DNA from: a virus
Taxonomy: Duplodnaviria; Heunggongvirae; Uroviricota; Caudoviricetes
DNA length: 9,467 nt
Strand: one strand, 5' to 3'
Virus record (IMG/VR): IMGVR_UViG_2548876943_000010
Location: 1 to 9,467 of that record
Positions 1-3,000 of this stretch are shown piece after piece. Position numbers: made by a program. How positions within the stretch are numbered: the stretch's first letter is position 1; the number at the start of each line of letters is the position of its first letter.

Positions 1-3000
1 CGTCCGGTGATGCTCTTCTCTGTTTTGTAAAAAGAGCGGTACCAGCCGGAAGCAAGTGTACAAACTGGTACTGCCAAAGCAGTGGCTGTTGTGGTGACCG
101 GTGCTGATCTCCGGCTTGCGGTTATTTCAGACTCTCACGGGCGTTTGATTGCCCCGCCGAACAGCTCTTTTCCGCAATAGCTGCAATGTCTTTCGCGCAT
201 CAGCCTGCGCATTCACCACAACGCTGATAGCATTGCCGGTGTCCGAATCGAACGGACCTTTTCCCTGCCCAACCCTCCCATCTGAATGGGACTGTCTGGA
301 ATTGAACCAGCACTTATGCCTTGCTCGTCAATGCTCTCATCGTTGCGTCCTGGTCTCTTCCCAGGCGTCAAACCGAATCGCCACGCTGGTTAGGCGTCTT
401 ATCAGCATCCTCATTGACTTGCACATTCCGGCTACCTGGTTTGTTTGCCCGAGCAAGGAGTGGATTGTCCCCTTTAACGTCCCCAGACCGCTAACGACGC
501 ATGTGCCATACGCCGTGTTACAACCAAATTTTGTTAGGACCTTGTTTGTTGGTCTGGAAAGAAAGATAAAATGAAATTGCGCATTATGCAAGTGTTTTGT
601 TGCGAGATGCGCAATATGATGGGTGATGAAAAGCCACCTTCTGGTGGCTAATTGATGAGGAGGTCGGGGTTAATTGTGTCGCTTAAGGGTTTGTGACTGA
701 CTGATTAAGACCTTCCCAAAGACCATAAACCGGTGTTCGTTTTCGCTGGTAATTCCCCATTCACGGTAAATCTGGTTATCAGAAATCACCAGTAGTTTGT
801 CAGGTATCATTTGCAGTCGTTTGACATAAATTTTATCATCAAAACCAAACACATAGATACCATCCCCATCAAACTGATTGATACTGATATCAACGAAGAT
901 GAGATCTCCTGGCTCAATGGTTGGACACATACTGTCCCCACGAACGTTGATAACTTTAATGTGATTGGCTGGTCGTCCTCCAAACATCGATACAGCATTA
1001 TCAGTTATGTATTCAATGGCATGAATCACATCAATGACATCACCGCCCTGGATAAGGCCATTTCCCGCACTGGCACTGACATCCAGCATTTCAATACGGA
1101 ATACATCCTTCACCTGCGCAACATCCTCACCAGTACTGTTTTTACATACAGTATTACTTTTGAAGTCTGAGGTAAAGAGATCTGCAATATCAACACCTAA
1201 GCTCCTGGCAATATTACTCAGGGCTTGTTCAGTGAATTGTTTCTGCTTACCTGTTTCCAGGCGTGAGATATTCGCCGCATCCACTCCTATTGCTTCAGCG
1301 AGATCGGCGATTTTCATGTTCTTCGCCTGGCGAAGTTGTCTGACTCGATTTCCTATGTTCATGCGTTTATTACATTTCTTTATTGCGCGTTAAGCAAATC
1401 AACTTGCGCAAAATATTTGCGTGAAATAATATGCTTATCACGCAATATGTGGAGGTTATATGCAATCACCATTACGAAATGTGCGTAAGGCGCACGGATT
1501 TACTTTGCAGCATGTTGCTGCGGGTGTTCAGGTTAATCCAGCGACGCTGAGTCGTATTGAGAGACTGGAACAAATTCCATCTATCGATCTGGCAGAGCGT
1601 CTGGCCAATTTTTTTAAGGGAGAAATCAGCGAAATGCAGATTCTCTATCCTGCTCGCTTTCAATCTAGTCAAAACCGGAATGAGTTAAAACCACAGGAAA
1701 AGGAGGTAAGCCGTGGGTAAGCATCACTGGAAAGTGGAAAAACAGCCTGAGTGGTACGTGAAAGCGGTCAGAAAAACTATCGCGGCGTTGCCGGGTGGTT
1801 ACGCTGAAGCAGCTGAGTGGCTGGATGTAACAGAGAACGCTTTATTCAATCGCCTTCGTGCCGATGGCGATCAGATTTTCCCGCTGGGATGGGCAATGAT
1901 TTTACAGCGCGCGGCTGGCACTCACTACATTGCGGATGCTGTCGCACAGTCTGCTGGTGGGGTGTTTGTATCGCTTCCTGACATTGAGGAAGTAGAGAAC
2001 GCCGATATAAACCAGCGCCTGCTGGAAGTCATCGAACAGATCGGGAGTTACTCAAAGCAGATTCGTTCGGCAATCGAAGATGGGGTAGTGGAGCCACACG
2101 AGCAGACAGCAATGAATGATGAGTTGTATCTGTCAATTTCGAAGCTCCAGGAGCATGCGGCACTGGTCTACAAAATTTTCTGCGCTCCAGAAAAGAGTGA
2201 CGCCCGCGAGTGTGCAGCTCCGGGCGTCGTGGCGTTTTGTGTCTGTGGAGAAACTAACGCATGAACAGTTTAACAACACACTACCGTCGCTCGCAACTGA
2301 TTGCGCTTCCTGTACCGGGTGGAAAAGCGAAGGTGGAGTATTGCTATGCAGTGAATGTACCAGGTGACAGGGAAATTGTAACCCACAGCTTTGCAGAGTG
2401 GGCTGTGGGTGATTTCAACCGGCAGAAGGAGACAGTCCTTTGCGACAAGTTAACCGCTGGTTCAAAGATCACTACGGAGTGCCCGTCAGAGTCATTCGTT
2501 GGGAGCCGGAAACACAACGGGTTATCTACCTCCGTGAAGGCTATGAACATGAATGCTTCAGTCCGCTCGAACAGTTTCGTCGTAAATTCAGGGAAATAGA
2601 GGTCGGTCATGAGCCTGTTAATGACATCCCAGCCCATTGTGATAAATCGTGATCTTGCATGCCGTATTGGTCTGAATGAGGCAATTGTGTTGCAGCAGCT
2701 TCATTACTGGCTGAATGAAACGAATTCAGGCACTGAGCATGGCGGAATTCGCTGGGTTTATAACACGACAGAACAGTGGCTGGAGCAGTTTCCGTTCTGG
2801 TCAGAGTCCACTCTGAAACGCACATTTGCAAGCCTGAAATCACTTGGGGTTTTGCGTCGCGAGCAACTCAATAAATCGAAGCGTGACATGACCAACTTCT
2901 ACACGATCAACTATGAAAGTGAGCTTTTAGAAGAGGTCAAAGTGAACGAATCCATCAGGTCAAAATGCACTTCTCCATCGGGTCAAAGTGACCTGATGGA

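Follow-up and report, generated by a model that had tools for sequence, protein, structure and literature searches.

The locus considered here lies in a window of 9,467 nucleotides (nt), which is the whole stretch of DNA analysed (positions 1 to 9,467 of the IMG/VR virus record IMGVR_UViG_2548876943_000010, Caudoviricetes) and corresponds to the part of an e14-like lambdoid prophage of Escherichia coli that is devoted to immunity and replication. The early right operon of this prophage is arranged in the order ymfK (cI), ymfT (cro), ymfL (cII-like), ymfM, the DUF4222 gene, and O, and two open reading frames (ORFs) overlap out of frame at 2261-2652 on the plus strand. The longer one, ymfM (2261-2599), encodes 112 amino acids (aa) and is the counterpart of b1148 of E. 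coli K-12, annotated as "cell division inhibitor YmfM" (SfiC); the shorter one (2440-2652) encodes 70 aa from a TTG start at 2440-2442 and belongs to the family DUF4222 (PF13973). They share 160 nt (2440-2599), in which DUF4222 codons 1-53 are read in frame 0 and ymfM codons 60/61-112 in frame +1. The comparative evidence makes it probable, with a likelihood of about three in four, that the region holds two genuine, separately initiated genes, and that the frame of the ymfM tail is kept open yet is free in its sequence. Both genes are individually known, and no new family is involved.

The boundaries of these genes are closely interlocked. The start codon of ymfM overlaps the TGA stop codon of ymfL (2262-2264) within an ATGA (2261-2264), a motif of termination-reinitiation coupling, and the context cgcATGAaca or TAAcgcATG is found again at this start in most related loci. 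The DUF4222 frame is shut upstream by a TGA at 2410-2412 and is open from 2413 to its end at 2652, with a Shine-Dalgarno (SD) sequence AAGGAG at 2426-2431, exactly 8 nt before the TTG; every detail that an earlier sequence-only reading of the window had given, from the two ORFs between ymfL and O to the SD spacing, proved accurate. Translation of ymfM ends at a single TAG (2597-2599), composed of the rare Ile codon ATA of DUF4222 codon 53 and the following G. A GAGG at 2599-2602, the likely SD of the O gene, abuts this stop and lies 6 nt before the O ATG at 2609, which comes 9 nt, or three codons, after the TAG and in the same reading frame as ymfM (2261 and 2609 are both 2 modulo 3). The O-like gene itself (2609-3589, 326 aa) matches phrog_391, replication initiation O-like, with E = 1.2e-99. 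DUF4222 continues for 53 nt beyond the end of ymfM and shares 44 nt (2609-2652) with O, where its disordered tail covers the first 14 O codons; only 9 of its nucleotides (2600-2608) belong to no other ORF. The unconstrained tail of each partner overlies the constrained part of the other.

The alternative frame, which had been described as protein-like from its sequence, encodes a clear member of DUF4222: residues 2-53 align with positions 3-52 of the 53-position Pfam profile at 66.5 bits against a cutoff of 27 (E = 1.5e-18), the gene also falls in phrog_1343, and a database search retrieved 145 clusters, of which every named one is called DUF4222. Here and in the homologues, the gene stands directly upstream of a replication gene and overlaps it. 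In AlphaFold models, which were built for both YmfM and DUF4222 from shallow alignments of 20 sequences, the DUF4222 core (residues ~2-53) is predicted as a small beta-barrel-like domain with a predicted local distance difference test (pLDDT) of 88-90 for residues 10-50, followed by a disordered tail at 57-70. The ratio of nonsynonymous to synonymous substitution (dN/dS, Nei-Gojobori) is at most 0.07, which indicates strong constraint. Among 35 lineages, the start codon is ATG in 24, GTG in 7, and TTG in 4, the starts in the most distant loci being assigned by the analysts, and an SD-like motif is located upstream in 28 of the 35, against a background of 18%. Because of these motifs and starts, DUF4222 is predicted to initiate independently, with a start and an SD of its own; of the options that the sequence-only reading had listed, this agrees with a nested TTG-initiated gene, the homologues of which mostly begin with ATG.

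Two further features accompany this gene. A hairpin of 6 bp at 2425-2442 pairs the AAGGAG with a UCCUU before and overlapping the TTG, with a fold that is not significant (z = -1.2); it is suggestive at most that the hairpin could mask the internal DUF4222 start until ribosomes in the ymfM frame pass. On the minus strand, an ORF of 97 aa is antisense, codon for codon, to DUF4222 (2344-2637 in the window, 1335-1622 in the related locus L007, and 1159-1446 in L013), and two phage records annotate such a codon-antisense ORF in place of ymfM and DUF4222. It is probably spurious, being open only because DUF4222 contains no TTA, CTA, or TCA codons.

The longer ORF is likewise a recognizable gene. 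It is 96.4% identical to K-12 b1148 over residues 1-112 (tblastn, NC_000913.3), matches the 112-aa profile phrog_1170 over the same residues (E = 1.2e-69), and retains the K-12 synteny between ymfL and an O-like gene, downstream of the ymfK/ymfT immunity genes. Homologues of 111-117 aa were found to as low as ~46% identity, and Pfam returned no match for YmfM. As an outcome that would count against it, the sequence-only reading had named homologues of the full 112-aa frame together with no match to the alternative frame; the answer is mixed, since such homologues exist, K-12 YmfM included, but the alternative frame matches strongly as well.

Within ymfM, the evolutionary pattern suggests that only the first ~58 codons evolve as a protein, under moderate constraint. 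In codon-position comparisons of the window with Klebsiella-, Citrobacter-, Raoultella-, and Atlantibacter-type homologues, from a set that comprised 75 related loci overall, the nucleotide identity of this part is ~0.75/0.72/0.52 at its own positions 1/2/3, and its dN/dS amounts to 0.29-0.47 (Nei-Gojobori). This N-module (2261-2437, ~58-59 aa) matches the 63-aa profile phrog_20047 (E = 1e-42), and an exhaustive search yielded 56 representative clusters of its family, with lengths in a bimodal distribution of ~59-77 and ~100-123 aa. In other phages it occurs as a free-standing gene of 53-77 aa; in Erwinia, Providencia, Yersinia, and Hafnia, a stand-alone N-module ORF ends at or before the DUF4222 start, and such stand-alone modules retain the motif MNSLT...PQxRC.P..G...F.Y...PG...N...VGD. 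The impression that the long ORF is genuine for about 60 codons and then becomes low-complexity was supported by the combined content of S, T, N, G, A, and K, which rises from 0.37 in residues 1-59 to 0.58 in residues 60-112, and by the AlphaFold model, in which a beta-beta-beta-alpha-alpha layout with a pLDDT of 60-69 (residues ~10-65) gives way to a tail with a pLDDT below 50 and predicted disorder (residues 67-112).

These data bear on the view that only DUF4222 is real and that the 112-aa ymfM is a spurious long ORF. It is the view embodied in the annotations of the Prokaryotic Genome Annotation Pipeline (PGAP), which leaves ymfM out in thousands of genomes, and it draws on the missing Pfam match and on a C-terminal half that resembles alternative-frame sequence. 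It is nevertheless very unlikely, given an N-part that evolves as coding sequence with the third position most variable and is conserved elsewhere as a free-standing small ORF, an ATGA overlap with ymfL in many lineages, and PHROGs of its own (63 and 112 aa); moreover, the ymfM frame is depleted of stops 12-fold relative to expectation, and the flanking genes are not.

Within the overlap, constraint is confined to one of the two frames. Nucleotide identity at DUF4222 codon positions 1/2/3 is ~0.92/0.98/0.49, and protein identity is 78-92% for DUF4222, with 88-92% in the Klebsiella-type comparison, versus 43-55% for the ymfM tail. Read in the ymfM frame, the same nucleotides give an apparent dN/dS of 1.7-10.8, which is not meaningful as a value and is the signature of the alternative frame of a constrained gene. 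At four-fold sites of invariant DUF4222 residues, the entropy reaches 1.8-2.0 bits among 34 sequences with less than 85% DNA identity, third positions being near saturation, so that the ymfM tail is practically unrestricted at its second codon positions; tail positions exchange polar and hydrophobic residues freely (L/S, T/I, S/F). Neither four-fold-site entropy nor position-specific identity nor dN/dS revealed any amino-acid constraint on the tail, and the amino acids of the last 53 ymfM codons, which are no more than the +1 reading of the DUF4222 domain, are not under selection.

The same measurements leave a practically negligible probability that only ymfM is real, the DUF4222 match being an artefact of an alternative frame or the overlap a sequencing error. 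The K-12 RefSeq record, which lists ymfM alone under an experimentally based name, speaks for such a view; it is opposed by the low dN/dS of DUF4222, the conservation of 90-98% at its codon positions 1 and 2, the Pfam score, and the confident fold, as well as by the occurrence of DUF4222 without an overlapping long ORF in the Citrobacter phage phiNP and by identical sequence in many independent complete genomes. Of 5426 complete E. coli genomes, 2001 contain the 501-nt region of the locus, and at least seven of these carry it with 100% identity, which disposes of the sequencing error that had been raised as an option.

The ymfM frame differs from an ordinary alternative frame in its stop codons. 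In ~75 loci, the +1 frame within DUF4222 contains 0-1 stops per locus, versus 1-12 for the +2 frame. Codon choice follows the same pattern: Val before a codon starting with A is encoded by GTT or GTC 85 times and by GTA or GTG twice, CTG does not occur for Leu before A (0 of 16, versus 20 of 38 in safe contexts), and ATA does not occur for Ile before a purine (0 of 19, versus 17 of 83). At the stop-avoiding sites, T and C are freely interchanged, so those sites have turned over. The ratio of observed to expected +1 stops is 0.08 for DUF4222 (6 versus 71), compared with 1.01 for the cII-like gene and 0.87 for the O/Ash gene, and in the +2 frame of DUF4222 it is 1.16.

The depletion is tied to what lies upstream. 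A lineage was counted as fed when its +1 ORF is fused to an upstream ORF or coupled to it through a stop/start junction (ATGA, TAATG, TGA-ATG, or TTGA). The 31 fed lineages contain no stop in the DUF4222 core, versus 59.2 expected, and the 4 lineages lacking an upstream feed contain 6, versus 8.3 expected; in phiNP, where the N-module gene is placed elsewhere, the same +1 frame carries seven stops. A saturated subset of 11-12 lineages with a third-position identity below 0.5-0.55 likewise has none, versus 22 expected (Poisson P ~1e-10). In Erwinia, Providencia, and Yersinia, the stop of the N-module overlaps or abuts a +1-frame ATG (ATGA, TAATG), and in Hafnia, where the N-module is further upstream, the stop of an intervening gene does so (TGA-ATG); after these junctions, a stop-free +1 ORF of ~58 codons spans DUF4222. 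The place at which the frame closes is recurrent as well: of the 20 Ile codons in the DUF4222 codon-53 column, 19 are ATA, 22 of 34 lineages have their +1 stop there, and 21 of 34 have the O ATG at DUF4222 codon 57. The comparative data thereby show that stops are systematically excluded from the +1 frame wherever an upstream ORF would feed ribosomes into it. Across diverged relatives both frames are kept, with amino-acid constraint preserving frame 0 and the exclusion of stops preserving frame +1. The overlap of the two ORFs is judged to exceed chance, because the Pfam match of the shorter ORF is accompanied by a longer frame that is stop-free in 31 lineages, where ~59 stops would be expected.

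A frame that is open and free in sequence might still matter for its product, and the main rival explanation gives the ymfM tail a function within YmfM, as a disordered extension or linker for which length or presence counts and sequence does not, as for a spacer, a degradation signal, or a tether. Most lineages of Enterobacteriaceae fuse the N-module to a tail of near-constant length (~53 codons), disorder is predicted for it, and in SfV, ST64B, and the related locus L061 the frame runs on, like a linker, into a domain of the Ash family. The explanation is weakened by Erwinia, Providencia, Hafnia, and one Yersinia lineage, in which the +1 ORF is separate (coupled by ATGA or TAATG) and still stop-free, so that its openness is independent of attachment to the N-module, and by the free polar/hydrophobic exchanges at many tail positions; it is regarded as unlikely, though clearly less so than the denial of either gene.

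It could also be asked whether the two frames form one protein, either as a gene split by a -1 frameshift mutation, as the sequence-only reading had allowed, or through programmed -1 frameshifting, with a YmfM-N::DUF4222 fusion as the product. The DUF4222 frame is indeed -1 to ymfM and open for 27 nt upstream of the TTG, and a few in-frame fusions exist in databases (P0031, P0052, P0059, P0065, and P0090). These fusions are rare, however, with 1-14 member sequences each; they are 92-100% identical to the e14 type and derive mostly from read-level assemblies, with an indel near 2410-2440 or further downstream. In agreement with what had been noted at first sight, no slippery heptamer X_XXY_YYZ is in register within 2261-2597 (two GGGAAAT heptamers, at 2370 and 2591, are out of register), no homopolymer of five or more was found, and scans for homopolymers and prfB-like motifs detected none in register. 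The local RNA fold at 2395-2480 is not significant (z = -1.19, 24 of 200 shuffles folding as well). In addition, most lineages provide DUF4222 with a start and an SD of its own, two frames are present in 75 of 75 loci, and in phiNP and the Hafnia phage yong2 the N-module and DUF4222 form separate genes at a distance of ~750-850 bp, with another gene intervening. A fusion product is thus highly improbable, and a single mutational split does not account for the locus.

With two separately initiated genes as the preferred explanation, the maintenance of an open but free frame suggests that the act of translation matters, not the peptide. A translational relay is therefore proposed tentatively, with somewhat less than an even chance of being correct, which would lead from ymfL through the ATGA into ymfM and from its TAG over 9 nt to the O ATG. 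Ribosomes coupled in from ymfL would enter the ymfM frame at the ATGA, and the open frame would carry them across the embedded DUF4222 gene. They would terminate at the TAG within the ribosome-binding region of O, where reinitiation at the in-frame ATG would be possible. The translation of the replication initiator might in this way be coupled to the upstream genes; at the same time, ribosomes in the ymfM frame would keep the mRNA covered and may modulate internal initiation at DUF4222. The spacing of the two junctions fits such coupling, and similar junctions are present in related loci. Rfam contains no family within 2261-2652, and a consensus scan of the plus strand of this region detected no promoter and no terminator; one terminator-like match on the minus strand (2486-2474) is within chance expectation and was discarded.

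Several points weigh against the preferred explanation, for the open frame as well as for the relay. The relay is read from the anatomy of the locus and from the pattern of an open frame lacking conservation, and since ribosomes translating DUF4222 likewise finish at the O start, the need for a second relay frame is not evident. When synonymous codons were shuffled within the gene, the depletion of stops was not significant (P 0.15-0.7), because the codon usage of the gene already embodies stop avoidance; null models based on genome and local codon usage, a context-dependent codon table, and calibration on the flanking genes were used in its place. The lineages share ancestry, which makes the stop-free counts not fully independent, and the strongest statistics assume independence, although the outcome in the saturated subset remains clear. 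Finally, three Yersinia-type loci in which nothing delivers ribosomes to the +1 frame also have no core stop, with ~1.5 expected in each.

The upstream part of the locus appears to be exchangeable. Various N-termini are joined to the same tail, a pattern indicative of recombination with a boundary near the DUF4222 start, the small upstream gene being swapped as a cassette. N-terminal modules that are unrelated or much diverged stand on the same +1-frame tail in P0071 and P0089 and in the loci L009 and L012 (LLS and SfV types). Residues 19-50 of the N-module (window 2315-2410) weakly resemble single Listeria-Bacteroides/InlB B-repeat units (PF09479), a likeness seen with the giant repeat proteins P0210 (13 matched stretches) and P0227, with the common motif VEY..A..P.D....(Y/H).FA.W.VG.

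At the other end of the tail, the +1 frame of four loci has no terminal stop, namely SfV orf37 (L012 1052-1888), ST64B sb41 (L011 1058-2215), L061 1352-2503, and L015 1184-1867, and enters an Ash-family (PF10554) domain ~20 nt after the DUF4222 stop. Near that point, the four loci offer only weak start candidates (GTG or TTG) that have no SD, and weak GTG and TTG candidates near the DUF4222 stop also exist for the Ash proteins of SfV, ST64B, and Hafnia. The Ash proteins of the SfV, ST64B, L061, and L015 loci may be translated across DUF4222.

The two-frame arrangement is widespread. It is also present in Klebsiella phages at ~73% DNA identity and in 57 more species-level genomes, and an ORF of 111-117 aa crosses DUF4222 in Klebsiella, Citrobacter, Enterobacter, Pantoea, Leclercia, and Buttiauxella, at DUF4222 identities as low as 46%. 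Annotation traditions each drop one of the two overlapping genes: K-12 RefSeq, along with several phage records, lists only the 112-aa ymfM ORF, which is also the EcoCyc-style choice, and PGAP, across thousands of genomes, retains only the 70-aa DUF4222 gene, here at exactly 2440-2652, with nothing annotated in 2261-2440. Pangenome and functional studies therefore see different genes at one locus. The locus offers a clean and widely conserved case in which selection keeps a reading frame open and leaves its amino acids free to vary, and it would be a useful test case for methods of overlapping-gene detection and for the lambdoid coupling of the replication initiator to upstream genes.

The overlap further affects how the SfiC phenotype is assigned. 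In the preprint by Ansari et al. (bioRxiv, 10.1101/2020.11.19.390815), K-12 ymfM (b1148) is described as a simple gene of 112 aa encoding the cell division inhibitor SfiC, and expression of ymfM DNA blocks Z-ring formation and causes filamentation; the constructs were a ymfM "open reading frame" in pBAD24 and delta-ymfM strains. A library clone of 2013 is given as ymfL(142-185)-ymfM-ymfN(1-92), so the whole DUF4222 gene was included. Within the K-12 ymfM fragment itself lie the AAGGAG, the TTG, and, of the 59 DUF4222 codons, the 53 that make up the complete Pfam domain. Every phenotype construct, whether the 2013 clone, pBAD-ymfM, or delta-ymfM, thus carries or removes the DUF4222 SD, start, and whole Pfam domain, and the SfiC phenotype therefore belongs to the DNA segment. 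Later work relies on the same ymfM deletions, and a sequencing-based screen maps only the ymfN-ymfK region. Within its covered sections and search terms, the 2020 study contains no start-codon, stop-codon, tagging, or western experiment. The searchable literature, outside which many subscription papers and the final journal version of the ymfM study lie, yielded no frame-specific ymfM experiment, no paper linking DUF4222 with ymfM, and none describing DUF4222 as systematically co-encoded with a second open frame; five papers name DUF4222, once each, and these are distinct from the ymfM papers retrieved. Filamentation could arise from the YmfM N-module, from full-length YmfM, or from DUF4222. 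Of the two products, DUF4222 shows by far the stronger conservation; that it, and not (or not only) the 112-aa YmfM, is the SOS-inducible division inhibitor SfiC is a conceivable but doubtful assignment.

The remaining features of the window are those of the surrounding prophage. A LexA/cI-like repressor gene occupies 670-1362 on the minus strand and a cro-like gene 1460-1720, followed by ymfL (1713-2264, plus strand), which encodes a CII-like regulator of 183 aa with a GTG start (PF06892, Phage_CP76, E = 2.6e-14; phrog_101, CII-like activator) and whose name is the annotation carried in E. coli genomes. The ymfL of the window is an intact ORF; in the related locus L001 (2015-2565, NZ_CP027544.1), PGAP marks ymfL as a frameshifted pseudogene, and the 501 nt downstream of it are identical to the window. 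Inside the O-like gene, six tandem repeats of 23 nt (CATCGGGTCAAAGTGACCTGATG-like, with a spacing of 23-24 nt) are located at 2930-3068, followed by three 15-nt repeats, 12 nt apart, at 3073-3111; by analogy with lambda, both sets look like the iterons of an origin that lies within the initiator gene. Towards the end of the window, Rfam matches occur at 8875-8934 and 9021-9211; they comprise the small RNA STnc100 at 138 bits and, at 37 bits, part of a tRNA (model positions 7-64). ARAGORN found no tRNA, and the partial match may be a tRNA fragment at a prophage end or attachment site.

When compared with known systems, the locus is closest to e14 of K-12, with which it has the same ymfM gene in common (96% over 112 aa) in the same place between ymfL and an O-like gene. 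The window differs from K-12 e14 in having a different, intact O gene and a 70-aa form of DUF4222 in place of the 59-aa form, and from the K-12 annotation in a second, better-conserved gene, DUF4222, which is absent from the K-12 record. Relative to the other members of PF13973 and phrog_1343, the domain match is full-length, and the start is TTG instead of the ATG of most relatives. SfiC is comparable to Kil, DicB, and CbtA, which the preprint presents as small SOS- or induction-linked prophage products whose over-expression blocks Z-ring formation (10.1101/2020.11.19.390815). The likeness concerns the small prophage product and the Z-ring block; no sequence or fold relation of this locus to these three was found, the YmfM model being too low in confidence for a fold search. 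From a programmed -1 frameshift site the locus differs in having no in-register heptamer and in parts that do not always occur together, as phiNP and yong2 illustrate.

In the Rz/Rz1 pair of lambda and the D/E pair of phiX174, an embedded gene lies wholly inside its host gene, and both products are functional proteins. The locus described here resembles them in that a second gene has its own start in an alternative frame of a longer phage gene. Unlike them, it shows a partial overlap, with DUF4222 running on into O; one partner's share of the overlap shows stop avoidance only and is free of amino-acid constraint; and two stop/start coupling junctions are connected by the open frame. Termination-reinitiation at ATGA or at close stop/start junctions couples translation in polycistronic operons, and the ATGA between ymfL and ymfM, the stop-9 nt-ATG arrangement with its GAGG between ymfM and O, and the ATGA, TAATG, or TGA-ATG junctions that feed the +1 frame in distant lineages are of this kind. 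What would set the present case apart from usual coupling is that the coupled frame would cross another functional gene for 53 codons, yielding a product that is apparently irrelevant.

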